Assembly (NCBI GenBank): GCA_051294375.1
Contig: CM119265.1
Location: 403,305 to 467,304 of the forward strand
Reading direction: 5' to 3'
DNA: 64,000 nt
DNA from: Paraspadella gotoi
Taxonomy: Eukaryota > Animalia > Chaetognatha
Shown here: piece by piece, positions 2,058 through 33,751 of the stretch
Numbering within the stretch: the first letter of the stretch is position 1
Layout of the letters: every line of letters starts with the position of its first letter
The notes under the pieces: model-generated
Seen by the model: only the letters and a program-made list of their open reading frames with translations
What the model was told of the DNA's origin: nothing
Database searches by the model: none
Program-made: the position numbers and the translations under genes

Positions 2058-2755
2058 TGTGGTGAGGCATATGAGTTGAACCACAGCGCGACGACGTTGC
2101 CTTACACACCTTGTGACATATGTGCTGAGCATCATGACGATCTTAGTCTTTTAGCGTTAGACGTTAGATGGCGCAGGGAAAAGTAGGTCACATGATTTGT
2201 AGATTATATTGAAACGTTTATAATTAATATTTGAAGCGAGATTAAATATGAGATTAATATTAAACGTTTGTTTATTAAGATTCGTTGTGAGATTATTAAT
2301 TCGAATGAAGAATAATTAATTGAAGATTAATTTATTTTATTGGATTAATAATTTCACTTGTTGTAAAATCGAGTTCTCATCATTTAATGTACTCAATACA
2401 TTTCGGGATAGATTTAAAACAATGTTTTTTAATGTTGTTTTAACATTATATTAACGAGATCAAAAACAAGAGTAAAATGAATCAGACTTCAATCATTGAA
2501 GTAAACAGTTAATAAAACAAAAGCAGTTGAAATGGCGGTAAGACATCTCTAGTTGAGTTCTATTAATCTAGGAAAAACAAAAGGCTTCGTTCTTGGTTTA
2601 AAGCTTTAAAACAGGTTTTAATCTGGCGATAAAACATGGCCTCTTGGTTGGCTGAGAGGTTAAACTCGAAGCGTCCCAAGCCTGAGTTCGAGGTTCGAAT
2701 CCCGGCTGCTGGATGAATTATTTTCTCACCAGATAATTCGCTCAAGTTGGCCGCA
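2058..2755 (-). repeat. 5' LTR of E1 (family A, ~700 bp)
   Basis: TGTGG...CCGCA termini on +; bounded by the PBS and by ACCCT telomeric repeat; blocks of similarity to the family C LTR (e.g. AAAACAAAAGGCTTCGT, TCGAAGCGTCCCA). Confidence 0.82.
2638..2712 (+). ncRNA. tRNA-like Pol III type-2 promoter module inside the family A LTR
   Basis: A-box TGGCTGAGAGG 2649-2659, B-box GGTTCGAATCC 2692-2702 (43-nt spacing), TTTT at ~2721; cloverleaf incomplete. Confidence 0.7.
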
Positions 2756-2785
2756 ACCCTACTAACCCTTAACCCTAACCCTAAC

Positions 2786-2822
<37 letters not shown>

Positions 2823-2949
2823 CCCTAACCCTAAACCCTATACCCTAACCCTAACCCTTAACCCTAACCTACCCCTAACCCTAACCCTAACCCTAACCCT
2901 AACCCTAACCCTTACACCAACTGCTAACCCTAACCCTTACCCTTAACCC
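2756..2949 (+). repeat. Telomeric (CCCTAA)n spacer
   Basis: Direct reading. Confidence 0.98.
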
Positions 2950-3333
2950 TGTGGCATAAGGCGCTAAGTGGGCGAAGATGACTATCCGTTAACTCTCTAT
3001 TACCTCCCTCTAGCAGACCATGGAACGAGTCCTGGGCTCTTGCGATACAGGCTTGAGGGTTCGCCAACGCCCCCAAGGCCGGCTTACCCGGCCGTCCTCA
3101 CTCTTCCCGCAAGGTCAGCTACCGGCGCTTGTGCATTTGAACCCGGCTGAAACCGGGCCTCCTGGTCCCAACGGTGTTTAGCGACCGTCCCTCCCATTTT
3201 TGACCTGAATTGTGGTCCATGAGCCCGAATCGGCGTCTGTAGCTCAAAATGAGCCACCGGGGTCCACATACTTGAAAAGCAGTTCTATGCTTTATAGGCT
3301 GGGGGTTTGAACCATTGCAATGCCCCGACTACA
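2950..3333 (-). repeat. TRIM 3' LTR
   Basis: Aligns by eye with 3468-3797 apart from an ~60-bp extra segment near 3150-3210; adjacent to the PPT. Confidence 0.8.
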
Positions 3334-3467
3334 TGCCCCCCCAGATTGTCAACCCACCCTGCACTGCTTTCCAGCTGGAGGGAGGGGAGCAATTCGTTCG
3401 CGCACGTCATGGGCCTGATTCAGAAGGTGGGAATACGCATCGACAGGATGCACGGTCTCTCACCAGC

Positions 3468-3797
3468 TGCTGGGAATAAGGCCGGCTAAGTGGGCGCCTT
3501 GAGTTATGACTATTTCCCGTAACTTCTTATATACCCCCTCTATGCAGCACAATGGAACGGCGTTCCTGGGCTTTTGCGAACCAGCGCTGAGGGCTTTCGC
3601 CACGCCCCCAAGGCGGCCTGTACGGCCGTCCTCACCTCTTTCCCGCAGGTAGGTACCGGCGTTGATTGAACCCACCGTAGCCTTAGTGGTCATGAGCTGA
3701 TGCGCTGTTTACTCAATGAGCCACTCGGGTCACACTGAAAGAGGTCATGCTTATACGGCGCGGCACCCTGTGACACCTAGGCAATGCTCGGACTACA
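3468..3797 (-). repeat. TRIM 5' LTR with sense-oriented tRNA-like A/B boxes
   Basis: Minus strand TGGCTCATTGAG (3723-3712) and GGGTTCAATC (3673-3664); adjacent to the PBS. Confidence 0.8.
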
Positions 3798-4212
3798 CCA
3801 CTAACCCTAACCCTACTTACACCGCTAACACCATAACCCTAACCCTAACCCTACTAACCCGTACCCTAACCCTAACCCTCAACCCTAACCCTAACCTAAC
3901 CTACCCTAACCCTAACCCTAACCCTAACCCTTAACACCCTAACCCTACCCTAAACCCTAAACCCTTAGACAAACCACCTAACCCTAAACCCTAACCCGTA
4001 ACCCGACCCTAACCTAACCTACCCTAACCCTAACCCTAACCCTAACCCTGACTAACTCAACCTAACACCTAACCCTACCCTAACCCTAACCCTAACACCT
4101 TAAACCTAACCTAACCCTTAACCCTAACCCTACCTAAACCCTTAACTAACACCTAACCCTAACCCTAAACCCTAACCCTATACCCTACCCACACCTGACT
4201 AACCCTAACCCC
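3798..4212 (+). repeat. Telomeric (CCCTAA)n spacer
   Basis: Direct reading, with many indel errors. Confidence 0.97.
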
Positions 4213-5068
4213 TGTTGGCGCGGCGTGCATATAGTGGAGCCCCAGACTTGACGAAGCACCGCTACGCCGTTAAGTGTAGTGTCACTAGACTCTTACAGAC
4301 ATTCCAAGCCAGATAATTAATGAATGATTAGCTTGGGCCGCAGGGAATCTTTGTGCGCTATTCTGAATGTATATCAGTTTTATTCGCTAGACGGCAGCAG
4401 TAGCAATCAGATGGTCCGTCGTTTAGTCTCTTTCGAATTAGGCACCATTAAGGACGGTTTTAATTTAGCAGTTGAAATTAAACGGAGTTAATGTTAGTTC
4501 GAGCATTAAGAATCTTTGAGACTACTACCGGTTTTTAACACTTCTTTAATTCAGCCGCATCTGAATCATTCTTTCAGAATTAGCAGCATTCTAATTCTTT
4601 AGATTTTATTTCGATTTGATCTTTATTTTCTCATGTTTTTAATGTAGCTATTTACATTTTAGTGAGAGATTAAATATAAAACAATGAGATCAAATCATTA
4701 CGTATTCATGTATTATTTGACATGAACATTAACAAAACCGCAACCTTGCATTTCAGATCTAGAAAACACAAACTCTCAGAGCGATAACACAATCGATTGC
4801 AGCAGCAGCTGGCCGAAATGATTTGGCGTACCGCCCTCCTGACGGAGGAAACCAACTAGTTTTGTAGGAAACAAATAGATGTACATACGCGAATATCTGT
4901 TTTAAATGCTTTAGGTTCGAATTCGAATTCAATTCGATTTTCAGAAGCCAGTTTAGCGCTTGCGCTATAATCGCTGGGCTTCTCGCACTCTTCACGATAC
5001 CAGGATCGCAATCCTAGATCGGTGGCCGCATCTATTTATACAATAGTAGGTCGATCGAAGCATCTTCA
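4213..5068 (-). repeat. 3' LTR of E2 (family B)
   Basis: Direct repeat of 10688-11443, 11560-12309 and 16076-16824; ends ATCTTCA followed by TCCCCC (PPT). Confidence 0.9.
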
Positions 5069-5399
5069 TCCCCCTTGCTGATTAAATATATAATCTTTAT
5101 AATATTTACATTAAAATTTGAAAGTTAATAGAATTAAAATTGTTGTCGCTCCGGTAATGTGCTGTGATTGTGTACAAAATATATAAACCGTATTTCTTAA
5201 CATTGCGGGTAAATCGTAGTTTCATTTCGACGAATTGAAATAAAAAATTGACCTAGATTTCTAGAAATTGACGAAGGTATAAAATCTGTACAAATAAATT
5301 ATTGTAAAATACTGCTAAATTGGGTTTTCCCAAGAATACTTTAATATACAAAAACAACCAAAATATTTATTCTAATAATGGCTTAAGGGAGCTCGGCCG

Positions 5400-8300: not shown

Positions 8301-9385
8301 ATGTCGTCTAAGTAGACGAACGTATGGGGGATCTCACCCAAGATCTCATCCATCAAACGCTGAAAGTCTTGTCCTGCGTTTTTCAAACCGAAAGGACAAC
8401 GAGGAAAGANNNNNNNNNNNNNNNGAGTGATTACAGCCGTCTTTTTTACATCTTGAGGATTTACCGGGATTTGATGATAACCTTTGAGCAAGTCTATCTT
8501 CGAGAAGATAGTCTTGCCCTCCAGTTGCGCGTTGAAGTCCGTTAGTAACTTCACTGGGTAACGATCCTCGACGGTCTGGGCGTTGAGGCGACGGTAGTCG
8601 CCACAACNNNNNNNNNNNNNNNNNNNNNNNNNNNNNNNNNNNNNNNNNNNNNNNNNNNNNNNNNNNNNNNNNNNNNNNNNNNNNNNNNNNNNNNNNNNNN
8701 NNNNNNNNNNNNNNNNNNNNNNNNNNNNNNNNNNNNNNNNNNNNNNNNNNNNNNNNNNNNNNNNNNNNNNNNNNNNNNNNNNNNNNNNNNNNNNNNNNNN
8801 NNNNNNNNNNNNNNNNNNNNNNNNNNNNNNNNNNNNNNNNNNNNNNNNNCTTTGAGTTCGAAAGTAGGAGTGGACAATGAGGGAAACGACTCAAGCAGCT
8901 TGTAATATTTTTCCCCTTTTCTGTCTACGAAATTCACATGAGTTGGCTGCTCCTCCGCTGTCGACGCTGCTAATGGTCGAGTAAGTCCCTTTAGATCTAA
9001 GAGGAGTCGCGTCTCGATGATTTTGGCGCCTAAATAGTTTTGCTGGCCATGAAATCAGCGCCTAGGATATGTTGCTTCACTTCCGCTACGACAAACTGGT
9101 AGTCGAATTTTCGATTTCCAAGTTGAACAGGTGCTTTGGGTATACTAGTGCGCTATAGGCAGTCGGGGATGTTTGAGTTCCGTTGGCTGCTTGCAATTTC
9201 AATGAGCGGTTCTGGGCCATTTTTTCGCTGCTGGGGAGTAGGCGGAATGATAGATAGTAGGGCTCCGCCGTCAATTAGCCACTTAATTCGATTCCCGGCG
9301 TNNNNNNNNNNAAGTAGTTTGTTGGGTGCCGGTGAAGAGTTCGAGGTTAGGGGGACGGCGTTCACCTGCGTCGTACCCCCTTTCC
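5400..9385 (-). CDS. pol: Pol polyprotein of E2 (PR, RT, RNase H, IN), broken by N gaps and indel errors; 3' end approximate
   Basis: WLIDGGAL; [24 protein letters not shown]; [27 protein letters not shown]; [36 protein letters not shown]. Confidence 0.9.
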
Positions 9386-10500: not shown

Positions 10501-10687
10501 CGAGGTCTTTTTCTCCGTCGAATCCGTTTAGAAGTGGGAGAAAAAGGGAAAAAAACGTGTTGAGAAGATTGGGAGACTACTCACTTAATCCCGAAATTTC
10601 CAAACCCAATCTCACCTCAGAGAAGGTATTTTCCGCTGGCGTTACTCCCCTTCGTTCGTTGGAATTGTTCTCAGTCGTTCTCACCAT

Positions 10688-11443
10688 TGTGGCGGGTTAT
10701 ATAGTTGAGCCACACTTGACGAAGGACCGCCCTAGCGTTAGTGTCACAACTCTAAGACATTAGCGCGATAAATATGGATGATAGGCTTGGCTCAGGGAAT
10801 TCTGTGGCCGCTATATAATTATATCAGGTTTATTCGTGACGGAGAGTAGATCAAGATGGCTGTCGTTAGATCTTCGAATTAGGCACATTAAAGACGGTTC
10901 TTATAGCAGTTGAAATAACGGAGTAATGAAGATTCGAGATTTAAGATCTTTGAGACTACTCGGTTTTTAACTTTTTTAATTCAGCGATCGAATTCTTTAG
11001 ATTAGCAGATTAATTCTTTAGCATTAATTCGATTGAATTGTTTTTTCTCATGTTTTAATTGTAGCTATTACATTTTGTGAGAGATAATAAAAAAACAAGA
11101 GTATCAATAGTTATTTCATGTTATATTTGTCATGAAACATAAAAACCGAACAAATGATTTCAGTTAGAAAACAATTCTCAGAGGTAAACAATGCATTGCT
11201 AGCAGAGCGGCGAAATGATTGGTAGCCCTCTGACAGGGGAAACAACTAGTTTTGTAGGAAACAAATGATCAACGAATATCTGTTTCTAAATGCCTTTTAG
11301 GTCTCGAATTCGAATCAATTGATTTCAGAAGCCAGTTTTAGCGCTGCGGCTAATCGCTGTTCTTCGATCTTCGATACCAGCGGATCGAAAATCCTCATCG
11401 GGGCGATCTATTTATTAAATAGTAGGTCGATCGAAGATCTTCA
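10688..11443 (-). repeat. 5' LTR of E2 (family B, ~755 bp)
   Basis: TGTGG...CTTCA; PBS on the left, ACCC telomeric repeat on the right. Confidence 0.9.
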
Positions 11444-11559
11444 ACCCAAACCCTAACCGCTAACCCTAACCCTAACCCTAACCCTAACCGCTAACCCGTC
11501 TACCCTGAACCCTAACCCTAAACCCTAACGCGCTAACCCTAACTCCTAACCCTAAGCCC
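11444..11559 (+). repeat. Telomeric (CCCTAA)n spacer
   Basis: Direct reading. Confidence 0.97.
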
Positions 11560-14500
11560 TGTGCGCGGTTATATAGTTAGCCAGCAGCTTGACGAAGACC
11601 GCTACGCGTTAGTGTTCACAACTCTAAGGACATTAGCGATATAAAAATGATAGCTTGGCGCAGGAATTTGTGGCCTATTGATGTAATATATCAGTTTATT
11701 CGTTGACGGAGAGGTAGATCAAGGATGGCGCGTTTAGATTCTCGAATTAGGCCCACATTAAGACTCGTTTTTAATTAGCAGTTGAATAACGCGAGGTTAA
11801 TTGTTAGTTCGAGATTAAATGCTTGAGACTACTCGGGTTTTTTAAACTTTTTAATTCAGCGACCTCGAATTCTCTTAGATTAGCAGATTAATTCTTAGAT
11901 TTATCTGCGAGATTTGATTGGTTTTTCTCATGTTTTAATGTAGCTAATTACATTTGTGAGAGATAATTAAAAACAAGGAGTATCAATAGTTATTCATGTA
12001 TTATTGATGAACATGGGAAAAACCGATATGATTTCAATTAGAAAACAATCTCAGAGGTAAACAATGATTGCTAGCCAGGAGCGGGAAATTGATTGTAGCC
12101 CTCTGAGGGAAACAACTAGTTTTGTAGGAGAACAAATGAATCAACGAATATCTGTTTTAAATGCTTTAGTCGAATTCGAATTCAATTGATTTCAGAAGCC
12201 AGTTTTAGCGCTGGGCTATAATCGCTGGCTTCTCGATCTGTCGATACCAGGATCGATCCTGATCTGGGGCGATCTATATTAAAAATAGTAGGTCGATCGA
12301 AGATCTTCATCCCCCTTCTGATTAAATATATAATACTTATAATTATTTACATTAAAATTTGAAATTTAATAGAATTAAAAATTGTTGTCCGTCCAGTATG
12401 TGGTGATTGCTCGTACAAATATAAATACCCGCTCTCATTTCTTAACATTGGGTTAAAATAGTAGTTTCATTTCGAAATGAAGATAAAATTGACGATGGAT
12501 TTCTAAATTACGAAGGGTAAGAAATCTGTACAAATAAAATTTGTAAAGATTACTGTAGAAATTGGGTTTTCCCAAAATACTTAATATACAAAAAACAACC
12601 AAAATATTATTCTAATAATGCCGTAAGGAGTCGGCCGTCGAAGTCAATCTCTCTCTTTNNNNNNNNNNNNNNNNNNNNNNNNNNNNNNNNNNNNNNNNNN
12701 NNNNNNNNNNNNNNNNNNNNNNNNNNNNNNNNNNNNNNNNNNNNNNNNNNNNNNNNNNAAATACAAAAATACTAAAAAACTTTCTACATTTCCACATCTC
12801 CATACTTCACACTATGCCGGGACTGTCGGTTGCCGGAGCCAATGCCGAGGATGCTGATGGAGGAAGATAACAAAGACTGGCTCCGGTAGCTGATCAAATT
12901 AGCTCCGACGGCGGGATTTTGTCTTTTGTCTTTTTGTTGTTGTTATTGTTTTCGTTTTGATTTCTTTTCAGCATCTCTTTGAGTACAACAGCATAAGTGG
13001 GTCGAGTATAATGTTTGTTGGAGAAATTCTCTGAAGTTGGTTTCGAGAAGCGACACGTTGGCTCAATATTTCTCGCTTCTCGCTTGTTGTTGTTGTTGTT
13101 TTCCTCTTTTTCATCTCTCGGTGGAGTCTCGAATGCTGCTCCACCCTGGTGTCCAATTCAACGATTTGGCCCTCTGCCGCCTTAAGGCTCGTACTCAGAG
13201 CGGCCCGCGAGCAGCAGGTTGGCGACTCCTGGAATGAATCCTATAATTAATTAACCATACCCAGGAGCGTTGAAGCTCCTGATAGTCGGTGTTGGGCGTG
13301 TCCGTCTCTCGAAGTGTCTGGAACGGCGTTCAACGTAGTTGGTCGGACGCCGTTTTTGTCGACGAGGTAATCTCCAAGAATCTCGAGGACTCTGGTCCCG
13401 AGTCAGGCATTTTTTCGTATACTACGAGTCCTTTTTCATCCAGAGCTTTGAAGACTTCTTTCCAGAATCTTCTCCAGGGGCTCCTCCCGGAAGGACGATG
13501 AGTGGCGGACCTAAAATGTTTCGCTAAATAAGTAGTTGACGAACGTCATGGGGGATTCACCACACTGATCTCATCCATCCAAACGCTGGAAAGTCCCTTG
13601 TCCTGTCGTTTTTTTCAAACGCGACAAAGGACCAACGAGGAACTGACATATCAATTCCGAACGGAGTGATTTACAGTCTCGTCTTTGATTTTACATCTTC
13701 TAGGATTTACCGGGATTTGATGTATAAACCTTTGAGCCAAGCTCTATCTTCGAGAAATTAGTCTTGCCCTCCAGTGCGCGCCGATTGAAGTTCCGTAGTA
13801 ACTATCACTGGGCTCGTAACATCCTCGACTCGGGCGTTCTGCGGCGTTGAGGCGACGTAGTCGCACACACAGCGCCAGCCCGCCATCTGGTTGGGAGACA
13901 CGCTGGCAGTGGCGACACCACTCTGACTTGTCCCCTTTTTGGCGATTGCCTGAGTGCCGACCATTTTTTCTAGTTCTGCGTTTTGGCCCACTGCCAACTT
14001 TCTCTGGAGGTCGAGGCGCCTCGCTCTTGATTTGGCAGGGGCGCCCTCGATACGTATTCGAGGGTTACTCCATGCTTTGGCGCTTTTGACGTTCGAAAGA
14101 GGAGTGGACAATGAGGCGGAAACGACTCAAGCAGCTTGTATATTTTCTCCCCTTTTCTGTCTTACGAAATTTCACCATGAGTTGGCTGCTCGCTCGCTGT
14201 CGACGCTGGCTATTGGTCGAATATCCTTTTAGCTATCTAAGAGCGGAGTCCATCTCGGATATTTGCTCTAAATACCTTTTCTGCCATGAAATACACGCCG
14301 CCTAGGCGGATATGGTTGCTTTCACTTCCGCTACACAAACTGGTAGTCAATTTTCGATTCCAAGTGAACAGTCTTTGTTACTGTGCACATAGCAGGTTCG
14401 CATGGGAGTTCCGTTTGGGCTGCTTGCCCAATTCATGAGCGGTTCTGTGGCCATTCTTTTCGCTGCGATCGGAGTAGCGCGGAGATGAATAGATTAGTAG

Positions 14501-16824
14501 GGCTCCGCTCGTCAATTAGCACTCTAATTCATTTCCGGCGTCGTCTCGGAATGTAAATAGTAGTTTGGTGGCTCTGTCGACAGCGCTGCGTCGCGACATA
14601 GAGAGCTCCGTCAACCGGCTTCGGCTGGTGGCGAGCTCTCGCTCACGTGGTTAAAGTGTTCACGGTTAGGGGACGCGTTCACCTTGCGTCGTACCCCCTT
14701 CCGCTTCCCTCCTTCTTCTTCTGCTGTTCTCGTCAAAAACGGGAACAACCTGGCTCGCAGGACTAGCGTCCTCTCAAATTTCACATGCGTGGAGCAAAGG
14801 AGTAAGAACAAGTTCGCTATTTTCCTTTTTTTTTTTGACGCTTGCCTGATTTCGTCGCCTGTTGTTTGTTGATTGTCGACGACTTGCGAGGGCGCTGATC
14901 GACTCGTTGATGCGTCGCTTCGCTCTATGAGTCGGAGGTTCGAACTTGATCTCGACGACCTTTTTCGATTCGCGTTTACTAGAGGAAGTCGTTTGGCGGA
15001 GCTTCAAATTGCCTTCGACGTCCGTAATGCATGATCGGCTAACTTTGCATAATTCTTTAAGCTTTGAGTGCTATCCGCTTTCTCCTCAGTTGTCGTCGTA
15101 TATCCGTTGGCAACTCGCGGAGTCATTTTTTCTTACGTATTCGTCGTCGACGCTGACGTTGCGCGTTTTTTCCTCGAGCTGTGCTAACACTCTTCGATGG
15201 TTTACGCCGCTGTCCGAGTTTTTAAAGCGTCGAGAAGAATTGGCGCTGCTGCCGCCTCGTGAGCGCCGTATTCAACTCCTCAGGTAACTGACGAATTGCT
15301 CCCAAGCTGCTTCAGACGGGCATTTTTCTTTCCCCCCAAAAAAAAAAAATTTAGGTTATTGATTAATCCTTGGCACTCTACATTTATACCTATTTTAGAT
15401 TCAAGATGGGTGCGAATAGTCCTGGATTCGTTGGATTCCCGCGCAAGGACGTAAGCAGCCTCGATTCTCTTTATATCCATTACTTCGATATTATTTTGGA
15501 TCGATAGTCCGGAAGCTCCGGTTTCCGGCCTTAAACGCGTTCTCAATGCGCGCGTGCGCGGCCGGCCTGAGGCGGCCGAGTTCGTCATCTCGTCGCGTAG
15601 ACTTCTGGCCTTCGCTGTCAGATTGCGAACTGGCTCTTGGTCGCGCCTCCATGTCGCCATGACGGGCGTCGTTCTCGTTCGCGTTGCTCGTAGTGAACGT
15701 GAAGCGTCGCGCTCGGCTCTCGATAAAACGCCGGCGAGATTGAGCGAGAAACGTTGCCTCGGCCAAAAACGCAATGGGACTTGGAGTCGAAATTTTCTTC
15801 GTTCGACGAGGCCTCTGCCGCGGCGTGCGTTGAGCCTGAGCGGAGGACGCTGATTCTTTAAACTCTCGGATCGCTCATCGAGGTCTTTGTCTCCGTTCGA
15901 ATCCGTTTAGAAGTGGGAAGAAAAAGGGAAAAAAATGTGTTGAGAAAGATTGGGGAAGGACTACCTCATCTTTAATTCTCCGAAACTTCCACACCAATTC
16001 ACCTCAGAGAGTATTTTTCCGCTGGCGTTCGTCCCCTTCGTTCGTTGGAATTGTCTCAGGTCGTTCTCACCATGGTGTGGCGTTATATCAGTTTGAGGCC
16101 ACAGCTTGACGCAGCACCGCTACGCGTTAGTGCTCACCACTCTTAAGACGATTAGCGGATAATTAATGATGATAAGCTTTGGCGCAGGAATTTGTTTGGC
16201 GCTATGGGATGAATATATCAGGTTTATGTCGTACGGAGAGATAAGATCAAGATGGTCCCGTCTTAGATCGTCGAATTAGGCACATTAAGACGGTTTTATA
16301 TTAGCAGTTGAAATAACGGACTGGTTAATGTTATTCGAGATTAAGATCTGAGACTACCGGGGTTTTTAAACTTTTGTAATTCAGCGATCGAATTCTCTTT
16401 GATTAGCAGATTAATCTCTAGATTATTCGATTTGATTAGTTTTTTCTCATTTTTAATGTAAGCTATTACATTTTGTGAAGATAATAAAACAAGAGTATCC
16501 AATAGTTATTCACTGTATTATTGATGACATAAAAACCGAACTGAATTTAGTTAGAAAACAAATCTCAGAGCGTAAACAATTGATGCCTAGCCAGAGCGGG
16601 AAAATGATTGGTTAGCCCTCTGAGCGAAACAACTAGTTGTTAGAAGACCAAACTGACTCAACGAATATCTGTTTTAAATGCTTTAGTCGAATTCGAGGTT
16701 CAATTGATTTCAGAAGCCAGTTTAGCGCTGGGCTATATCGCTGGCTTCCGATCTTCGATTACCAGATCGAATCCTGATCGGGCGATCTATTTATTAAATA
16801 GTTTTAGTCGATCGAAGATCTTCA
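11560..16824 (-). mobile_element. Second family B copy E3; error-rich, lacks RNase H/IN, chimeric across the 100-N gap
   Basis: LTRs 11560-12309 and ~16076-16824; gag ~14679-15878 and PR-RT ~13130-14705 collinear with E2; 12759-13128 instead matches family C 17720-18080. Confidence 0.8.
16711..16785 (+). ncRNA. Degenerate tRNA-like module in family B LTRs (also ~4941-5025, 11326-11405, 12193-12270)
   Basis: Four-copy consensus: TAGCGCTGGG (weak A-box), then ~43 nt later CAGG-ATCGAAT-CCTG (T-arm/B-box-like); overlapping AGAAGCCAG/CTGGCTTCT inverted repeat. Confidence 0.45.
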
Positions 16825-16939: not shown

Positions 16940-17590
16940 TGTTGCCCTGACACAGAGGCCAGCCACAGCGTGACGGAGGGAGTCGACAACCAGGAGGGTC
17001 ACGTGACTAAGTGGCGTTATTGATGACACGGAAGAGAAGTTGATGACCGCCAATGCAGGGAAAAACTGTGCCCGATGATAAAATTTTTTGTTTTTTACAT
17101 TCGAAGTATTAATTAGATTGAGAGAGATAATAATATTAAACGAGAAGTAACTTTCATTTGAAGGTTAAAACTTTTAATGTCATTCGAATCTGTTTTGTTT
17201 TCATCTTACTTTAATTATTTATTACATTAGATGAGATTAAGTAAAAACGAGTTTGAGCGTACATTAAAATAACATTATGTATTCAATGAGTAAAAAGCGA
17301 TACAAGACTGAATGTTTTCAGTTTAACAGATTCAAAAGTTAACTGTCTAGAAACAAAATACAAAAAGAGAGGACATCTTGTTTTAAGATGATTAACGCAG
17401 ATTAAAAACAAAAGGCTTCGTCTTGGTTTTAAAGTCTATGTAGTTGAATTTGAGAATCAGGAATTGATAGCCGCCTGGATGGCTGAGGACCTTAAGTCGA
17501 AGCGTCCCAGATATCAGATCCCGGGTCTCGATCCCGGACGGAGGTGGTTAATTGTTAATTTGATTAGATCCGATCTGTAAGGCTACTACA
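16940..17590 (-). repeat. 3' LTR of E4 (family C, ~650 bp)
   Basis: Start matches 23280 and 26033 (TGTGGCACTGACACAG); internal blocks match 23490-23760. Confidence 0.85.
17470..17548 (+). ncRNA. tRNA-like Pol III module inside the family C LTR
   Basis: A-box-like TGGCTGAGG at 17480; 5-bp T-stem CCGGG-TCTCGAT-CCCGG at 17521-17537; GCCGCCT/AGGTGGT acceptor-like pairing; homologous to the family A module. Confidence 0.68.
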
Positions 17591-17749
17591 TCCCCCCCTG
17601 TCGATATTTATACTTAATAATAAATAATCGCAACACATATTTACAAAATAAACTGTACAATGTCCACAATCAATTACTGACCTTACGAAAAAAAATTGAA
17701 AAATTCAAAGATAATATCAAAATACAAAAATACTAAAAAAACTCTACAT

Positions 17750-23061: not shown

Positions 23062-23834
23062 GTGATTCGAATTTGTCCCAGTCGTGTCACCAGGGGGTAA
23101 GCGTGGAGAAGAGGAAAGAAAAAGGGACGAGCGTGAGCGGATTGGGGTAATCAGCCTAATCCGAATTCCTTCCTCGGCCCCAATCTCACCTCAAAGAGTC
23201 TTTTCCCTGGCAGGTGTCCCCCTGCTTGAGTTTGCAAGGCTTGTTTCAATTATAACGAGTCTCTTGTTGTTTCACCATGTGTGAGATCTGACACAGAGAC
23301 ACTGCAAAGCGGATGTCAGCAGGATGCGTCAGTAGACATACAGCCCGAGGCAATCCTTTGAAGTCTTTGTCGCGAGCATTGTCGATTATGCAATGATGGT
23401 GCGAGTCTATTGAGAGAACGGAGACCAGTGGAAATGACCGAGCAGCAATCACGGTTTGCATGGGAGAACGTGCACCGATGAATAAATGCTTTTTTGTGTG
23501 TTATTTATACATTCGAAGTATTTAATTAGATTGAGAAGAGATAATTAAGTATTCAAAATACAGAGTCAAGAGTCCATTATCATGTCATAATATGAAGTGA
23601 ATGAGGACACTCTAACTTAAATAAGAGGAGTCAATCTTACTTTATTTAAATAGTTCGTATACAGTACAAATGATAGGTCATATGTATTTGCATCTCTCAC
23701 TTTCAATTATAATAATGTTATTTATTATCATGTATATGATGAGATTAAGTAAAAATATCTCTACAGATATCTTTGACTGTTTTTACCTGAGGAGTAGAGA
23801 CATATTACANNNNNNNNNNNNNNNNNNNNNNNNN

Positions 23835-26048
23835 TCTTCGAGAAGATCGTCTTGCCTTCGAGCTGCGCGTTGAAATCAGATAACAGTTTTACCGGATAGC
23901 GATCATCGACGGTTTGGGCGTTGAGGCGGCGATAATCGCCGNNNNNNNNNNACCCGCCGTCCGGCTTTGATACGACATGGAGCGGAGAAGACCATTCAGA
24001 TTTGCCACGTTTGGCCACCCCAAGGGCGACCATCTTCTCCAGCTCGCGTTTTGCGACGGCAAGCTTTTCAGGGTCGAGTCGACGGGCTCGTGCTTGGCAG
24101 GGCCGTCCCTCCGTCGGTATGGAGTGAGTTANNNNNNNNNNNNNNNNNNNNNNNNNNNNNNNNNNNNNNNNNNNNNNNNNNNNNNNNNNNNNNNNNNNNN
24201 NNNNNNNNNNNNNNNNNNNNNNNNNNNNNNNNNNNNNNNNNNNNNNNNNNNNNNNNNNNNNNNNNNNNNNNNNNNNNNNNNNNNNNNNNNNNNNNNNNNN
24301 NNNNNNNNNNNNNNNNNNNNNNNNNNNNNNNNNNNNNNNNNNNNNNNNNNNNNNNNNNNNNNNNNNNNNNNNNNNNNNNNNNNNNNNNNNNNNNNNNNNN
24401 NNNNNNNNNNNNNNNNNNNNNNNNNNNNNNNNNNNNNNNNNNNNNNNNTCCCGTAGCAAGCGATAGCTGACCCGTTTGCCGCTTGTAGCTTCATGTTTAG
24501 ATTTGGGCCTTGATCGCGCTGTTGTTTTGTAGGCGGGACAATTGACNNNNNNNNNNCTCCGTCGATTAGCCACCTCGTTCGATCCCCGGCGTCTCTGATG
24601 TAGATAAGGTCGCTTGACGCCGGTGATTTAGTAGNNNNNNNNNNNNNNNNNNNNNNNNNNNNNNNNNNNNNNNNNNNNNNNNNNNNNNNNNNNNNNNNNN
24701 NNNNNNNNNNNNNNNNNNNNNNNNNNNNNNNNNNNNNNNNNNNNNNNNNNNNNNNNNNNNNNNNNNNNNNNNNNNNNNNNNNNNNNNNNNNNNNNNNNNN
24801 NNNNNNNNNNNNNNNNNNNNNNNNNNNNNNNNNNNNNNNNNNNNNNNNNNNNNNNNNNNNNNNNNNNNNNNNNNNNNNNNNNNNNNNNNNNNNNNNNNNN
24901 NNNNNNNNNNNNNNNNNNNNNNNNNNNNNNNNNNNNNNNNNNNNNNNNNNNNNNNNNNNNNNNNNNNNNNNNNNNNNNNNNNNNNNNNNNNNNNNNNNNN
25001 NNNNNNNNNNNNNNCGGTGACGTCGTCGGCTTTGTCTTCCAGTTGTCGCCTGATCTCGATTGGTAGTTCGCGCATTATCTTTTCTTTTCGGACGTCGTCT
25101 AGGCTTAGAGTTTTAGTTCGCTCCTCCAGCTGGGCCAGCATTTTTGATGGCTTGACGGCGTCGACATCGAGAGCGTCGAGGAGAGTTGCAGCTTGTCGTC
25201 GACGAGTTAGACNNNNNNNNNNNNNNNNNNNNNNNNNNNNNNNNNNNNNNNNNNNNNNNNNNNNNNNNNNNNNNNNNNNNNNNNNNNNNNNNNNNNNNNN
25301 NNNNNNNNNNNNNNNNNNNNNNNNNNNNNNNNNNNNNNNNNNNNNNNNNNNNNNNNNNNNNNNNNNNNNNNNNNNNNNNNNNNNNNNNNNNNNNNNNNNN
25401 NNNNNNNNNNNNNNNNNNNNNNNNNNNNNNNNNNNNNNNNNNNNNNNNNNNNNNNTGTTATTAACATCGAAATCTGGCAGATCTGGTTTTCGATTCGAGG
25501 CACGTTCTAGGGCGCGCGTGGCGGCAGCAAGGGCGGCGCGGAGCTCATCGTTTTCGTCTTGTAAATCTCGTGGAGGCGCGCCTGAAGCTGCCGCTGCTGC
25601 CATGCCGACGTGTGCGTTCTCCGTCGACTGAAAAGTGAATTCTGGCGTCGCGTCAGCGAAGGNNNNNNNNNNNNNNNNNNNNNNNNNNNNNNNNNNNNNN
25701 NNNNNNNNNNNNNNNNNNNNNNNNNNNNNNNNNNNNNNNNNNNNNNNNNNNNNNNNNNNNNNNNNNNNNNNNNNNNNNNNNNNNNNNNNNNNNNNNNNNN
25801 NNNNNNNNNNNNNNNNNNNNNNNNNNNNNNNNNNNNNNNNNNNNNNNNNNNNNNNNNNNNNNNNNNNNNNNNNNNNNNNNNNNNNNNNNNNNNNNNNNNN
25901 NNNNNNNNNNNNNNNNNNNNTAATCAGCTAATCCCGAATTCCCTCGCCCAATCTCACCTCGGAAGAAGTTCTTTTCCGCTGGGTCCCCTTGTCTTGAAGG
26001 TTGGCTTTTCTTTCGTCGTCGGTTTCACCATGTGTGGCACTGACACAG
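23835..26048 (-). mobile_element. Partial family C copy E5 (LTR edge, PBS, gag, PR, RT start), mostly N
   Basis: ORF 24566-25603 is Gag-like and ORF 23761-24573 encodes an RT N-terminus; PBS TGGTGAAACCGAC 26018-26030; near-identical to E4 21040-23295. Confidence 0.8.
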
Positions 26049-26504
26049 NNNNNNNNNNAGGTACAAAGGCTACATGCCCCCCAGATAAAATTCGGGGACA
26101 TTCGTTATTTTATCTAAAAATTAATACATTTTGCCTTTGTATAAAGTATTTAAACGGTAAAATGGGACTTTTCGTTTAAGTGTGGGTTAAATTGTAACAT
26201 TTAACCTATAAATTCATCGAGATATTGTAAAATAGATAATTAAATACTTCGAAAAGTATTTATCGAAACAATTGTAAAGGTAACGGAGGGGAAACGAATT
26301 AAAATTAATTCGTTAACGGTAAGTTGAATAATTAACAGTTGTAAAGATGATTCTTTGCTGTTCTTACAGCATGGTACAATTGAGTTGACGATTTCGACGG
26401 TAATAATCACGTAACGGAACGATTTGACAGAAATCGTTAAAGTTTTGAAAATACAAGTTTAAAAAGAGGTGAATTAGAATAAAGTTTGTAAAAGACTGAC
26501 CCGT

Positions 26505-26920
26505 TCACGAGTTTGTTGACGATGGATCCTCATTGTTTATTTGTTGCAAATAATGAGCGAGGACTGCAGCGTAAGAACGGCCTGTTGGGTTGACGCTCGA
26601 AATTTGGCGCCTCGAGGCGCGGTAAGAGAAATCTTCTGGCGTTGGCCTTGAGAAGAATGAGGGGCGAGTGGGGGGAGGGGAGACGGGATCAGGTTCAGCA
26701 TTCGTTGGCGTCGACGTTGACGTCTCGATCGGATCTTTGGCGTCGTCGTTATTATCGTCGTCGGCTTTGTTTACTTTATTGTTTACTTTTTCCCTCGATT
26801 TGTTTATATTTGTGTTTAATGGGGGGAAATCGAGATTTGAAAGCGGATTTAAGGTCGTTGGTGGTCGAACGTCGTCTGGGGATGGGAGAGGAAGGTTCTG
26901 TGGAGGGGGGGGGGAGGGGG
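26505..26920 (-). CDS. Probable continuation of the integrase C-terminal tail in a shifted frame
   Basis: ORF 26505-27128 overlaps the pol end and crosses long G homopolymers (26904-26922) where an indel is likely; reads as a Pro/acidic linker ending FFSRPTPEDFSYR...GRSYAAVLAHYL. Confidence 0.45.
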
Positions 26921-29900
26921 GGAGGAGAGGAGGAGGAGAAAGGAGGAGGAGGAGGAGGAGAAAACGTGGTTGAATCATTTCGCCTCGCATTTGATCGTAG
27001 CGTTCGAGTCGATGGAGCTGGGTGACGAGTTCTGACGCCGGGGCGACGGCCCGGCGGAGGAGGCGACGGAGGCGGCGATGGCGTGCGTGGCGGAGAGGCG
27101 TTGCCGGAAATGGCGTCGTCGGCTTCATAAGCGGGTTTTAAGCGGGAAATCGACACGTTTTCGTTGCCTCGACCTGGGATCGCGATTCTGAACGTTAGTT
27201 GATCACGAGATATGACGCGATACGGACCCAGGTAAGGCGCTGATAATGACGAGGCCACGCCCCCGCGTCGAACGAATACGTGGGAGGCGTGGCTTAGAGC
27301 GTTAGGGAGGTGGATTTGAGGTTGACGGTGAGTCGTTGTCGGGGCTGGCTGGAGGCGCGATACTTCTAGTTGAAGGTTAGCGAGCGTACGACGCCGCTGT
27401 TGACGTTCGGCGGCGTCACTTCCGGTTTGAGTCGATAAAAGGTCTCCGGGTACTGCAATTGCTTCGCCGTAGACCAAATCTGCTGGCGAGGCGCCTACGT
27501 CGGGTTTAAGCGTCGTTCGAATGGCTAACAGGGCGCAGGGGAGGCGCCAGTACCAATCTCCTCGAGTATCAGCGCCTAGAGCTATTAGTGCTTCTTTTAA
27601 TCGGCGATGAAATCGCTCGACTAATCCGTTAGATTGGGGGTGATAAGCTGTTGTGAGATTGTGAGTAATTCCCCATGAGGCTAGAAGTTGTCGCCAAGTT
27701 GATGAGAGGAATTGAGAGCCTCGATCCGTTGTGATGGTGGCCGGGACGCCGAATGAGGCTATCCAGCCATGGACGAGAGCATCGGCGACGGTTTTGGCTG
27801 CTATATCCTTCATTGGGATGGCGGCGGGCCATCGCGTAAATCTGTCGACTACAGTGAGGATATAGTTGAAGCCGTTGGAGAGGGGTAAAGTCACAATGTC
27901 TACGTGGATATGATTAAAGCGACGTTCTGGGAGCTCGAAGGTGCCGATTTCCGGGATTGTATTCCGCGTCACCTTCGCCCGTTGACAGTCTTGGCACTCT
28001 CGTGCCCACTTCGAGACGTCGGCTCTCATTGATGGCCAAACGAATTTTTCTGAGATCGTTTGTCGCGTCCGTTCGACTCCAGGGTGGCCGAGATTGTGGA
28101 TAGTCTCGAAGATGCGGCGGCGCCACGCAAAAGGAACGAAGGGGCGTGGCGGGCCGTTGCTGACGTCGGCGATGATCGTAGTAGTGCCGAGTGGGATTTG
28201 GCGAAATCTCAATCCAGATGTCGAGTCGCTCGTGATGCGCTGGAACTCGGCGTCGAGTGGTTGATCGGTCGCCATCTTTTCGATGTCGATGCCGTGCTGA
28301 AGGATCGAGTGGACGATTTGATCGAGGTGTTGACGTTTCTCTTCCGGGACTTCTTTTGATATTGAAGCGACAATCGGGGGAGGTGAGGGAGCGGGGGCAG
28401 AGAAAGAAGGGAAGAGAGGTTGTGGAGTGGGTGAGGGAGGGGGAGAGGAGGGAAGGGGAATTTGTTCCGGTTCCTTCTCGGCGTTAGGTCGGGAGAGGGA
28501 GTCGGCGACGACGTTGGCCTTCCCTGCCAAATATTGTATGTCGGTTGTATACTCCGCGATACCTGCTAATTGGTAGGTTTGTCTCGCTGTGTGTGGTTCA
28601 GTTTTTTTGGCGAGAGCGGGAATTAATGATTTATGGTCAGTGAAAAGTGTAAATTGGCGGCCTTCAATCATCATTTTAAAATGTCGAATTGCTCGCCAAG
28701 CGGCGAGCAGCTCGCGATCAAAGGGTGGCCACATTTGCTGGTTTTTTTGTAATTTTGCCGAGAAAAAGGCCAAGGGTTCCCAACCCTTCGGCCCTTTTTG
28801 TTCCAGCACCGCTCCAATTGCTGTGTTCGACGCGTCAGATGTAATTGCCAATGAGGCGCCGGGACGTGGGTGGCACAACATTGTGGCTTGTGCTAATGCG
28901 TTTTTAATGGCCTCGAAAGATTTTTGGCATTCGAGAGTCCAGTTCAATATGCGTGGCCTCGATTTCGACTTAAGGGCCTCGAATAATGGGTATAAGTGGT
29001 GCGCTGACCTCGGGATAAAGCGCCTGTAGTAGTTGACGAGGCCTAAGAATCTTTGTAACTCCTTAATGGATGTTGGAGGCGTTGTTTTGTTTATGACGGC
29101 GACTCTGTCCGGTAATGGCGAGATGCCGTTGGCGTCGACTCGATATCCAAGGAACTCGAGTTCTGATTTACCTAGAACGCACTTCTGTCTATTGACGACG
29201 AGTCCATTCTGGTGAAGCGTCTCGAACACTTGACGGAGGTGCTGCTCATGTTCGGCGTGGGTCTCGGAGGCGACCAAGATGTCGTCGATATATACGAAGA
29301 CGAACGGCAGGCCATCCAGGATTTCGTCCATCAGGCGTTGAAAATCCTGACCTGCGTTCTTGAGTCCGAATGGCGTGCGCGGGAAGACGTATAGTCCAAA
29401 AGGCGTGATGACGCCCGTTTTGGCGACGTCTTCTTCCGCCACGGGTATTTGATGATACCCTTTCAAGAGATCAATTTTGCTGAACACCTTTTTTCCGCTG
29501 AGGTTGGCGTTGAAGTCATTTAGAGTCTTGACAGGGTATTTGTCATCGATAGTAGCGTTATTAAGTCGTCTAAAGTCTCCACAAACTCTGTATCCTCCAT
29601 CGGGCTTGTTCACGACGAGGAGAGGCGACGCCCACTCACTTTTAGCGCGGCGAGCGATGCCGAGGTCGCAGAGTTTGTCTAGTTCTTTTTTAGCCACCTC
29701 TAATTTGTCGGGGGCTAGACGACGGGCTCTTGACTGCACTGGCCGGCCTGTTGTTGGTATATAGTGCTTGACTCCATGTTTGGGCTCGGTTGGCTGAAAA
29801 GAGGGTGTGCAAAGGTTGTGATAAGCGTCAAGAAGTTTATAGTATGGATCATCAGCTTGGTGTAAAAAATTTACTCGAATGGGTTTTTGTTTGTTTGCCT

Positions 29901-30303
29901 TAAACGCTGGGATTGTGCTGAAATCATTCAGGTCAAATAAAAAACCATCACGATGGTTAGGGGCCAGATAATGTTCGGCCAGGAAATCTGAGCCGAGTAT
30001 AGGTTGAGTGACGTCCGCTATGGTTACCACGAAGGGAAATTTTCGCCTTCCAAGACGGACCTGGACGTCTCGATAACCATAGCAGGAAATGGGGGAGCCA
30101 TTGGCGGCTTTGAGTTTGGTTTGAGATTCTCCTTTTTTCCTCTCCTCTCTCGTTGGGGGAACAATGGAGACCGTCGCTCCGCCGTCGACGAGCCACTGCA
30201 GCTTGTTGGCGGCGTCATAGACGAAAAGGAGTGAATCTGTTGTATTGGTAGATTGGCCGGTCGGGATGTAATTCACCTCCTCCCGCCGGCCTTCCCGTTT
30301 TCC
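26776..30303 (-). CDS. pol: Pol polyprotein (PR-RT-RNase H-IN), intact, expressed by -1 frameshift
   Basis: 1198-aa open frame; WLVDGGA, YIDD, DASN, HNLGHPG..CQDC, DDE core, GPY/F module, Pro-rich extension. Confidence 0.96.
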   Translation of the reverse strand, partial: GKREGRREEVNYIPTGQSTNTTDSLLFVYDAANKLQWLVDGGATVSIVPPTREERKKGESQTKLKAANGSPISCYGYRDVQVRLGRRKFPFVVTIADVTQPILGSDFLAEHYLAPNHRDGFLFDLNDFSTIPAFKANKQKPIRVNFLHQADDPYYKLLDAYHNLCTPSFQPTEPKHGVKHYIPTTGRPVQSRARRLAPDKLEVAKKELDKLCDLGIARRAKSEWASPLLVVNKPDGGYRVCGDFRRLNNATIDDKYPVKTLNDFNANLSGKKVFSKIDLLKGYHQIPVAEEDVAKTGVITPFGLYVFPRTPFGLKNAGQDFQRLMDEILDGLPFVFVYIDDILVASETHAEHEQHLRQVFETLHQNGLVVNRQKCVLGKSELEFLGYRVDANGISPLPDRVAVINKTTPPTSIKELQRFLGLVNYYRRFIPRSAHHLYPLFEALKSKSRPRILNWTLECQKSFEAIKNALAQATMLCHPRPGASLAITSDASNTAIGAVLEQKGPKGWEPLAFFSAKLQKNQQMWPPFDRELLAAWRAIRHFKMMIEGRQFTLFTDHKSLIPALAKKTEPHTARQTYQLAGIAEYTTDIQYLAGKANVVADSLSRPNAEKEPEQIPLPSSPPPSPTPQPLFPSFSAPAPSPPPIVASISKEVPEEKRQHLDQIVHSILQHGIDIEKMATDQPLDAEFQRITSDSTSGLRFRQIPLGTTTIIADVSNGPPRPFVPFAWRRRIFETIHNLGHPGVERTRQTISEKFVWPSMRADVSKWARECQDCQRAKVTRNTIPEIGTFELPERRFNHIHVDIVTLPLSNGFNYILTVVDRFTRWPAAIPMKDIAAKTVADALVHGWIASFGVPATITTDRGSQFLSSTWRQLLASWGITHNLTTAYHPQSNGLVERFHRRLKEALIALGADTRGDWYWRLPCALLAIRTTLKPDVGASPADLVYGEAIAVPGDLLSTQTGSDAAERQQRRRTLANLQLEVSRLQPAPTTTHRQPQIHLPNALSHASHVFVRRGGVASSLSAPYLGPYRVISRDQLTFRIAIPGRGNENVSISRLKPAYEADDAISGNASPPRTPSPPPSPPPPGRRPGVRTRHPAPSTRTLRSNARRNDSTTFSPPPPPPFSSSSPPPLPPPSTEPSSPIPRRRSTTNDLKSAFKSRFPPIKHKYKQIEGKSKQ
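30255..30303 (-). promoter_or_regulatory. -1 frameshift signal (G GAA AAC plus hairpin)
   Basis: pol is in the -1 frame; GGAAAAC, 5-nt spacer, GGCCGG-CGGGA...TCCCG-A-CCGGCC stem. Confidence 0.75.
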
Positions 30304-31355
30304 GATTGATACTTGTAACAGCCAACTTCGCATTTTTTGGCTGAATCGCCATATTTTTTGTGGTAGAAACAAATATCTACCCGAGATGTTTTCGACTGAG
30401 AGGGTTGATGGTTTCCTGTCGATTTGTCGGCGTTGAATGGGCGGCGGAAGGAGTTGTTTGGGCGACGAGGTGGTTGAGATGGGCGCTGTCGATTGACGGC
30501 GTTGACGTCATCCGTTATCGGCGGCTCATCCGCCATTAATGGCGTGATTGGCGTGCCGACGGCGTAAGCTGCTGCTGTTGCTGTGGGATGGAGGAGTTTG
30601 CCGTCGCGGTCGAAATACGCGTCAGCGAACTTGGCGGCGGTTTCGGCGTCGACAGTCTCGACTCTTTCAGCGAGGCTACGTTGGATTTCTGTAGGTAGTT
30701 CCCTTAAGAGAAGTTCCTTCATTATATCGTCGACGCTTACTTTGCCGGCCTTCTCCTTCATCACTGCAAGGAGTTGGGATGGGCGTCGATTTTCTCGACG
30801 GGTCCCGTCGATAAGTGACGCCGCTTGCTGAGATCGAGTACGACCATATTCTGCTCTTAAATATTCGAGGAAAGAGGACCAGCGAGTGTCGGAGGCTTCA
30901 CCGAATAAATAGGCGTTTATGCGAGGATTGTAATCCACTGGGAATTTGTCCTCCATATGGGCAAACTTCTCTTTGGGCGTTGTAGTTCCAGCGCGCGTGT
31001 AGGCGGCCTCGACGCGCTGAATCCATAGTTCCACGTTATCGGGATCGAAATCTGGCAATTTCGGCTTTTTAATCGCCAATCCTTGAAGTGATGCTGCGAG
31101 TGTGGTCGCTAGAGTGCGGACGAGCTCTGCCTGGGGATCGGGAGCGGCCGCCATCTCGTTGGACCCGGTCGGCGACGTTGGGAATTGGAAATTCGTTTGA
31201 GTAGCGAGAAAAGCCGGAGATCGTCTCCCGCGGCCGAATCCGATGCCGGAAGGAGGGACGAGTTGATTGGGACGCTCGTGAGGCTGTAGAGGGGCGTCGG
31301 CGTCGCCGTTGGAGAGCGCTGAGCGGGCCCGGGTGCCACCGGCGGGTCCGCTCAT
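30273..31355 (-). CDS. gag: Gag protein (360 aa) with CHCC knuckle
   Basis: Intact ORF; KLPDFDPDNVELWIQRVEA; CFYHKKYGDSAKKCEVGC. Confidence 0.94.
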   Translation of the reverse strand: MSGPAGGTRARSALSNGDADAPLQPHERPNQLVPPSGIGFGRGRRSPAFLATQTNFQFPTSPTGSNEMAAAPDPQAELVRTLATTLAASLQGLAIKKPKLPDFDPDNVELWIQRVEAAYTRAGTTTPKEKFAHMEDKFPVDYNPRINAYLFGEASDTRWSSFLEYLRAEYGRTRSQQAASLIDGTRRENRRPSQLLAVMKEKAGKVSVDDIMKELLLRELPTEIQRSLAERVETVDAETAAKFADAYFDRDGKLLHPTATAAAYAVGTPITPLMADEPPITDDVNAVNRQRPSQPPRRPNNSFRRPFNADKSTGNHQPSQSKTSRVDICFYHKKYGDSAKKCEVGCYKYQSENGKAGGRR

Positions 31356-31681
31356 TCGTCGTGTGGTTGATGAGGTTGGTCACGTGAAAAGCGAAAGAGA
31401 ATGATGGTGAGAGATAGGCAAGGCTATCACAGCTTCCTCATCTCGACTTGCCTACCTGAGGAGGTGCTTTATTCCGCTTGAATGTGTTGGCCCGATTCGA
31501 TTTGCTTGATTTGCTTCTTTTTCTGTTCTTGACGTTAGTTTTGATTAGATTGATTAGGCTATTTCATTGTAGAGTAAGTTCTAAGGCTTTTAAACCGAGC
31601 AGTATTTAAGTGTATAAAGACATTGATGAATAAAATCAGTTTGTAGATAGGTTTTCAGAAGGTTTTGTTTTAAGTTCTTTA

Positions 31682-31694
31682 GTCGGGGTCACCA
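31682..31694 (-). promoter_or_regulatory. Primer-binding site complementary to the tRNA-Trp 3' end
   Basis: + strand GTCGGGGTCACCA equals the 3' end of metazoan tRNA-Trp including CCA; 2 nt from the LTR. Confidence 0.9.
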
Positions 31695-31696
31695 GT

Positions 31697-32123
31697 TGTA
31701 GATATTAGACATCCTGGCACCGAGAGGATTAAAACAGGAATTGAATAAGATCGAATTATCTCCCATTAACGTCAGTTAAAAACCGTCTGCTTATATTTAC
31801 TGAGCCATCTAGGTAAGTAGTAACGAGGACGGCCGACTTGGTAACTATTATAAACAAAAGGCCGTCTGAAATAAGAAGGAAATAATTATTCCAGGTTTTG
31901 GGCGTTTTCGAGTAAAAAGTGCCCGATAGCATAATCGGTAAGACGGCGGCTTGTGGCTCTCAAGGTTGCTGGTTCGAATCCGGTTATTGCACTTCTATTT
32001 ATAATCATAATTATATAAGGGAGATTTAAATAAGTGATTTATCGATGTGAAGAATTATAAATAAGTAATTCGATCATGATTAAAATTAATATAAATTATT
32101 TGGTGCCAGGTACAAAGGCTACA
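31697..32123 (-). repeat. 5' LTR of E6 (family D, 427 bp)
   Basis: Perfect TGTAG...CTACA termini; followed by ACCCTAA. Confidence 0.92.
31917..31994 (+). ncRNA. tRNA-like Pol III module inside the family D LTR
   Basis: A-box TAGCATAATCGG 31927-31938; B-box GGTTCGAATCC 31971-31981 in a GCTGG/CCGGT T-stem; AAGTGC/GCACTT closing stem; TTGTGGC loop resembling tRNA-His. Confidence 0.75.

Positions 32124-32356: not shown

Positions 32357-32393
<37 letters not shown>

Positions 32394-33241: not shown

Positions 33242-33279
<38 letters not shown>

Positions 33280-33720: not shown

Positions 33721-33751
<31 letters not shown>

Follow-up and report, generated by a model that had tools for sequence, protein, structure and literature searches.

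An antisense, tRNA-derived box pair in the long terminal repeats of CsRn1-like retrotransposons in chaetognath telomere repeats: a putative chromatin barrier

Promoter boxes of RNA polymerase III (Pol III) that derive from tRNA genes have been described within the LTRs (long terminal repeats) of Helenus and TRIMp3, which are short non-autonomous elements of 311-1263 bp (PMC10886601). The same source argues that their autonomous partners rely on Pol II and would not be expected to have such stretches of LTR in common with them, and it mentions, without describing them, tRNA-like parts in 'not a few' Repbase LTRs; the presence of tRNA sequence in an LTR is therefore not new. tRNA genes can also act as chromatin barriers, and those of fission yeast require TFIIIC and Pol III and work independently of their orientation (PMC2040200). 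Elements of the CsRn1 type have not been seen to prefer particular targets (PMC2582038), and Pol III boxes are not mentioned for the CsRn1 LTR models in the available part of PMC3601003. Here we report that a tRNA-derived module, consisting of an A box and a B box at tRNA spacing, stands antisense to gag and pol in the LTRs of autonomous, CsRn1-like elements (families A to D) that are inserted in telomere repeats of the chaetognath Paraspadella gotoi, and again in a relic LTR (family E) of the subtelomere. The analysis covers a window of 64,000 nucleotides (assembly GCA_051294375.1, contig CM119265.1, positions 403,305 to 467,304; all positions below are those of the window), short-read contigs of the same organism, and related elements from other assemblies. 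The module is real and is conserved across distant families; its function is putative and can be sharply tested.

The initial annotation of the window had reported A-box/B-box pairs at 2649/2692 in family A, 17480/17524 in family C and 31927/31971 in family D, together with weaker pairs in the four LTRs of family B. The first three coordinate pairs hold, and the intact boxes are separated by 43, 44 and 44 nt (Table 1). The element region (30,000 non-N bases) contains two perfect B boxes, at 2692 and at 31971, and none appeared in any of 20 Markov simulations; pairs with at most one mismatch in each box were observed twice, compared with a mean of 0.1 in the simulations. When the LTRs were shuffled, the box score was attained in 0 of 400 trials for A and in 0 of 400 for D. 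The copies of C (p = 0.59) and of B (p = 0.64, 0.13, 0.115 and 0.115) are not significant singly in the window, because they are error-rich. Short-read contigs give the C LTR a canonical B box. The weaker pairs proposed for B were borne out by a GGATCG-type box at the same place in all four copies, two of which were recovered, as weak matches, by a profile from which they had been held out (E = 0.011 and 0.069). The best held-out match in the window was module E. Relative to gag-pol every module is antisense, and the modules occupy positions 38-204 bp from the 5' end of the LTR (about 40-120 bp in the relic LTR of E), where the initial annotation had given approximately 50-200 bp; expressed as a fraction of LTR length, their position ranges from 0.05 to 0.48. 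A further, partial LTR (23276-23809) ends at a gap before the place of the module. In A, B and C an AATAAA signal is found downstream of the module, whereas D and the relatives described below have none. We infer that the module lies in U3, more tentatively so for D.

A metagenome scan provided 30 Gag relatives with 35-57% identity. A primer binding site (PBS) was found in 11 of these 30 loci; five had more than 500 bp before the PBS, and in four of them this sequence is an LTR. Six loci with less than 150 bp of LTR, L043 (no LTR behind the PBS) and L040 (a partial LTR that ends before the place of the module) were left out of the following count. All four near-complete LTRs (L025, L033, L037 and L044) contain an antisense module with a box spacing of 43 nt and a T4-T5 run exactly 15 nt past the B box, and the module score in these relatives was attained by 4, 0, 1 and 3 of 400 shuffles. 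The L044 LTR ends in telomere repeats at ACCC, and the A box of D is close to that of L044. In pairwise comparisons within the set made up of D and these four LTRs, the module took first or second place among the conserved windows in 8 of 10 cases. In a Gag tree (midpoint root; partial rows for L043, L044 and L041), the four relatives, which come from two assemblies, form one clade that is split from A, B and D at 97/98. Two of them contain additional antisense modules: the L037 LTR has a second one (143-225) that lacks a terminator, and L025 has one in its 3' untranslated region (UTR; 590-661) that is followed by a T5 terminator and matched a held-out profile with E = 0.00095. The inter-box sequence of these extra modules is unrelated, which suggests repeated capture. 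In both L025 (1-1680) and L033 (1-1223), an LTR is flanked by a polypurine tract (PPT) and, at its opposite end, by a PBS; these may be tandem elements that share an LTR, one-LTR circles or collapsed assemblies.

Within P. gotoi, the initial statement that only A and C share LTR blocks could not be upheld, since the 5' approximately 300 bp of the LTRs can be aligned among A, B, C and relic E, and the modules of A, B and C are homologous. Module E is C-like in its 5' half and B-like in its 3' half; it thereby bridges the C and B modules and indicates that a single capture underlies the modules of all four families, in agreement with the Gag tree, in which A and B are joined at 100/100. Among these four families, the window of T arm and B box is conserved best (0.72, compared with 0.42 for the flanks). 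Other contigs with a depth like that of D match the D LTR at its PBS end, at 31915-31984 and over its last 22-23 bases, and their joints skip the rest (at 80% likeness or more, the threshold of all contig comparisons reported here). Such contigs represent sister LTR families of D in which the ends and the module have been kept, and among the sister differences listed, those in the anticodon loop form a cluster. The long pieces over module D belong to D and two sister contigs. Among the matches listed, each run has 10-19 contigs that fall on the D stretch; for the C stretch the number is 3-16. At 80% likeness, therefore, no abundant short interspersed nuclear element (SINE) matches either stretch. 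The dispersed SINE that the initial annotation had named as an outcome adverse to its proposal was thus not encountered, and we rejected such an insertion because no many-copy pattern with unrelated flanks was seen on the two stretches. Two further LTR blocks are conserved between families, namely 17302-17357 (in C's sisters) and 17404-17440 together with 2573-2612 (in A, C and E); we regard them as candidate Pol II promoter elements.

As regards the initial designation of the modules as tRNA-like, the boxes and the T stem conform to it and the remainder does not. Over eight modules, 33 of 40 T-stem base pairs can form, compared with 21 of 56 in the acceptor stem and 12 of 40 in the anticodon stem (16 of 40 in the other register). 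Since the acceptor and anticodon stems are at chance level, the module is a promoter relic and not a tRNA. ARAGORN found 0 tRNA genes in the window, and the Rfam tRNA model (RF00005) had no match on A, on a miniature terminal-repeat retrotransposon (TRIM) present in the window, or on five relatives; D yielded only a 12.4-bit tRNA-Sec match. With these negative searches and no cloverleaf, a functional tRNA gene was rejected. Support from relaxed ARAGORN settings was likewise discarded as unspecific, A being one of 9 predictions and D one of 37. The fold of none of the eight modules was better than that of its shuffles (z from -1.17 to +1.18), and no stable or shared hairpin was found among them. 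Every module preserves the B box and the spacing. Overall, the pattern is more in keeping with selection on a DNA site for TFIIIC binding than with selection on an RNA. The module of the D lineage would descend from tRNA-Cys or tRNA-Trp, which tie once Cys controls are added; these are non-host controls picked by module-derived patterns, and the whole tRNA panel is small and comes from viral contigs (tRNA-Glu genes obtained with the first tRNA-Trp pattern served as further controls). A weak candidate module in the TRIM, near 3240-3300, was dropped, GTTC being absent there in three of four related LTR copies.

We propose, with a probability of roughly 45%, that the module is a docking site for TFIIIC and Pol III that acts in cis as a chromatin barrier in telomeric chromatin. 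A tRNA gene would have been captured backwards into the LTRs of telomere-inserting elements of the CsRn1 clade, and its fold would subsequently have been lost, with selection on the boxes maintaining the A box, the B box and their spacing. A complex of TFIIIC and Pol III would bind the module; with one module in each LTR, the coding region would be bracketed and protected from silencing spreading inwards from the telomere repeats to its left and right, and the element would thereby be kept transcribable within telomeric chromatin. Since the module is antisense, it cannot transcribe the element in the manner of Cassandra. More speculative, and in our view rather doubtful, is the broader notion that an undescribed large radiation of telomere-targeting LTR elements has made captured tRNA genes a portable barrier that was recruited more than once and insulates each copy.

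A number of observations weigh against a barrier. Because the fission-yeast barrier is orientation-free, it leaves unexplained why the module is antisense in all captures. D and L044 each have a TATA-like site, in sense orientation, between the module and the telomere-side end of the LTR, so that the module would fall at or after the start site. The TRIM resides in the same telomere repeats without a detectable module. A search of viral and prokaryotic collections for relatives that could serve as a non-telomeric CsRn1 control found none, so that a link between module and telomere would be conjectural. The claim of the initial annotation that the modules are a retained cis-element is supported, also as regards their tRNA origin, and the boxes exceed the flanks in most informative comparisons. 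The sisters of C, in contrast, share with it the 3' end of the LTR and the block 17302-17357 and do not match at the module, which in both runs covering it is covered by C's own contig alone (the C copy in the window has about 8% errors, which lowers the sensitivity of this comparison). When families A, B, C and E are compared, their A box reaches 0.53 and is no better conserved than two other blocks. Between the A/B/C and D lineages little besides the boxes can be aligned; the module comes out first in no more than 1 of 15 pairs, and in most of them its rank is low. The four relatives, as members of one clade, are not independent, and in them conservation is as high between the boxes as within them, although a pure docking site would not need it.

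This inter-box conservation (0.70-0.79 among the four relatives) could instead reflect a working Pol III gene whose short antisense RNA (about 85 nt, or longer and extending into the C-rich telomere repeats where a terminator is lacking) is under selection. The terminators point in the same direction: T4-T5 runs lie at a fixed +15 in all four relatives, a T4 run lies at +18 in A, the 3' UTR module of L025 is also followed by one, and only 4.5-10% of random LTR sites have a T run at such a distance. Pol III small-RNA genes are, moreover, present in foamy virus LTRs (PMC3993851). On the other hand, no fold is conserved, the inter-box sequence differs between lineages (0.42 over all seven), T4 is absent near the module in B, D and E, and a captured tRNA gene arrives with its own terminator; we consider a selected RNA unlikely, without dismissing it. 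The constant antisense orientation would be explained if Pol III factors directly controlled the Pol II promoter of the LTR whatever the chromatin, either through loading of the TATA-binding protein on the element-facing side (activation) or through attenuation. Divergent tRNA genes drive the small nuclear RNA genes of trypanosomes, and tRNA-gene-mediated silencing is known from yeast. TATA-like sites adjoin the module in D and L044; they are absent near it, however, in three of five D-lineage LTRs, and the variable position of the module along the LTR also speaks against direct control, which we judge improbable.

An old tRNA or SINE insertion that was simply inherited with the LTR and homogenised between copies is in line with the common capture behind the A, B, C and E modules, with the failure of C's sisters to match at the module, and with the tRNA-like parts of 'not a few' Repbase LTRs (PMC10886601). 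Yet boxes, spacing and terminator distance have survived while flanks and stems are at chance, over about 2 changes per site of Gag path, and a mere passenger is for this reason quite improbable. Still less credible, in spite of the fitting orientation, is an antisense copy through which the genomic RNA would, at its 3' end, base-pair with the 5' portion of its primer, tRNA-Trp, to the benefit of priming or of the first strand transfer. Ty3 has a split PBS with one part in U3 (PMC5371799), Drosophila gypsy has a 3' PBS (PMC1635307), and a 22-letter pattern from the L033 module led to tRNA-Trp(CCA) genes in three of three matches. Nevertheless, when compared with tRNA-Cys controls in the small non-host panel, Trp leads only in L033, where the test is circular, and in D (16 versus 14 of 30); it ties with Cys in L025 and trails in L044 and L037, and A attains 8 of 30. 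The longest identical runs are 2-9 nt, Trp is the best duplex in one of six cases, and the 3' ends of the modules match the PBS of their own element at 3-5 of 12 positions, a finding that also led us to reject a self-made primer. The guidance of integration into telomere repeats, which the initial annotation had considered, is highly improbable. Module and telomere insertion do co-occur in A to D and in L044, but the TRIM (2951-3796), in which no module was detected (in one noisy copy and two relic LTRs), is inserted at the same ACCC site, which argues against targeting, and in Ty3 the Pol III factors mark the target and not the element (PMC5911963).

By their marks, namely the Gag motif, the PBS and the junctions, families A to D appear to be Ty3/gypsy elements of the CsRn1 clade. 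Their Pol carries reverse transcriptase (RT), RNase H and integrase; the Gag proteins of A and B give weak DUF7041 matches, and the motif CX2HX9CX3C is present in Gag of A and D and masked in B. The PBS sequences of A, B and C have TGGTGA...CGAC in common and differ in three middle letters. Across the sites at 2041-2055, 10672-10686, 26016-26030 and 31680-31694, TGGTGA and CGAC are common and the middle three letters vary. The same variation is seen among the relatives, although mismatches of this kind should be corrected when the site is copied from the primer. The target duplication is ACCC (4 bp), a length that inside a tandem repeat depends on the cut positions, and some junctions are noisy. 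No env open reading frame was seen in the elements. The nearest named Pol matches are tapeworm proteins (46-49% identity), and unnamed proteins make up at least 110 of the best 120 Pol matches (about 66-74% identity), which indicates that the radiation is large.

From position 1 to 32123, the window contains LTR retrotransposons only on the minus strand, with short CCCTAA tracts between them, and a 10-kb telomere array comes next. All nine LTR-telomere junctions in the window lie at ACCC or at most 1-2 bases away, in one orientation. The ends of the D and C LTRs also run into telomere repeats in short-read contigs, and the depth of the D LTR contig is 1.2-2.3 times that of the internal region. 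The use of one site (ACCC) and one orientation in TTAGGG repeats is common to the window elements and to L044 (1-41), from another assembly. The window is a gapped, error-rich and partly chimeric long-read scaffold; because of the gaps and chimeric joins, the order of the elements is not reliable. Chimeric joins across N gaps are found at 12659-13130 and at 23276-26058, with C-like and B-like pieces and a fifth partial LTR at 23276; the LTR ends of C and D are fused over 10 N. A 210-aa open frame (26505-27137, minus strand) overlaps the end of D pol and has no Pfam match. The TRIM is about 850 bp long, and its GC-rich LTR (56%) is, apart from its ends, unrelated to those of the autonomous families. 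The telomere array is directly adjoined by a subtelomeric tandem unit of 5.3 kb (42317-52784), which consists in part of relics of telomere elements in opposite orientation: the 3' end, PPT and LTR of family E, and TRIM-type LTRs at 44210-44452 and 49514-49756.

Table 1. Positions of the modules and of the elements that surround them in the 64,000-nucleotide window.
Feature	Positions	Strand	Basis or detail
Module A: A box 2649, B box 2692 (spacing 43), T4 run 2721-2724	2642..2724	+	Box search, shuffles
Module in B LTR copy 1 (LTR 4213-5069), error-rich	4948..5019	+	Held-out profile match, E 0.069
Module in B LTR copy 2 (LTR 10692-11443)	11332..11414	+	Held-out profile match, E 0.011
Module in B LTR copy 3 (LTR 11560-12308)	12199..12280	+	Common box among B copies
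Module in B LTR copy 4 (LTR 16074-16824)	16716..16795	+	Common box among B copies
Module C: A box 17480, B box 17524 (spacing 44), 5-bp T stem	17473..17546	+	Box search, contigs
Module D: A box 31927, B box 31971 (spacing 44), 5/5 T stem, T4 absent within 30 nt	31920..31992	+	Box search, contigs
Module E, in relic LTR starting near 48055 after PPT, opposite orientation; noisy twin near 42745-42830	48096..48173	-	Best held-out profile match in window, E 0.0016
LTR of family A, 5'	2058..2754	-	PBS 2041-2055, telomere junction 2754
TRIM, non-autonomous: two short LTRs, PBS near 3460, PPT near 3334, inside telomere repeats; module not detected	2951..3796	-	Sequence features, profile search
LTR of family C, 3', then PPT	16941..17590	-	Single contig over 16947-17594: PBS on one side, telomere repeats on the other
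pol of family D: 1243-aa open frame for protease, RT, RNase H and a GPY-motif integrase	26776..30507	-	Domain matches
gag of family D, CX2HX9CX3C motif	30273..31379	-	Motif
PBS of family D, tRNA-Trp type	31682..31694	-	Equals CsRn1-like PBS in PMC2582038
LTR of family D, 5'	31697..32123	-	Contig of 426-437 nt, no substitutions, in 3/3 DNA runs; telomere repeats past its ends
Telomere repeat array (CCCTAA on +), target sequence	32124..42290	.	Repeat content

Elements that insert into silenced chromatin still need to be transcribed; a conserved pair of Pol III boxes offers a small target for mutation through which their means of achieving this can be examined. The modules extend the biology of tRNA sequences in LTRs from short non-autonomous TRIMs to autonomous elements, and do so in the opposite orientation, where a role as the element's own promoter is impossible. 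The carriers are notable in themselves, as CsRn1 elements have no reported target preference (PMC2582038) and are found here in telomere repeats. We did not find a precedent in the available parts of PMC3601003, PMC12471100, PMC5911963, PMC10088271 and PMC6088434, and the literature outside subscription papers and Repbase Reports, as far as it was accessible, yielded neither an LTR retrotransposon specific for telomere repeats nor an antisense tRNA module in autonomous LTRs; a tRNA-like stretch in HIV-1 U3R was likewise not encountered there.

The described members of the CsRn1 clade (CsRn1, PwRn1 and AgCR; PMC2582038) resemble the elements reported here in the CHCC Gag motif, the tRNA-Trp PBS, the 4-bp duplication, the GPY integrase and the lack of any env frame seen; whereas no target preference was reported for them, all nine junctions of the present elements lie in telomere repeats, in one orientation. 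The initial annotation had cited Cassandra, with its 5S promoter. Helenus, being tRNA-derived, is closer, although its orientation is opposite. Helenus/TRIMp3 (PMC10886601) and Cassandra are like the present elements in that the LTR boxes are conserved and the tRNA fold is lost, and in the 4-bp target-site duplication and the Gypsy machinery. In the Helenus consensus sequences seen, the tRNA part is on the PBS strand and thus sense; here it is antisense and resides in gag-pol elements of 6-7 kb. With gag-pol present and the promoter antisense, the carriers are not members of Helenus. The LTR cassettes of foamy viruses (PMC3993851) share with the modules an A box and a B box within the LTR of an autonomous element and, with those of A and the four relatives, a terminator of T4 or longer, which is absent near B, D and E. 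They yield hairpin microRNAs, in contrast to the tRNA-derived modules, in which no stable or shared hairpin was found. With the split PBS of Ty3 (PMC5371799) and of Drosophila gypsy (PMC1635307), too, the genomic RNA carries sequence complementary to a tRNA at its 3' end; here, by contrast, this sequence spans the whole tRNA length, with boxes and terminator, and has no consistent match to the class of the primer. Barriers formed by tRNA genes and TFIIIC (PMC2040200), including the ETC sites (PMC3395662), have Pol III boxes beside silenced chromatin in common with the LTR modules; the former are host loci established by experiment, whereas the latter are borne by mobile elements and known from their sequence.

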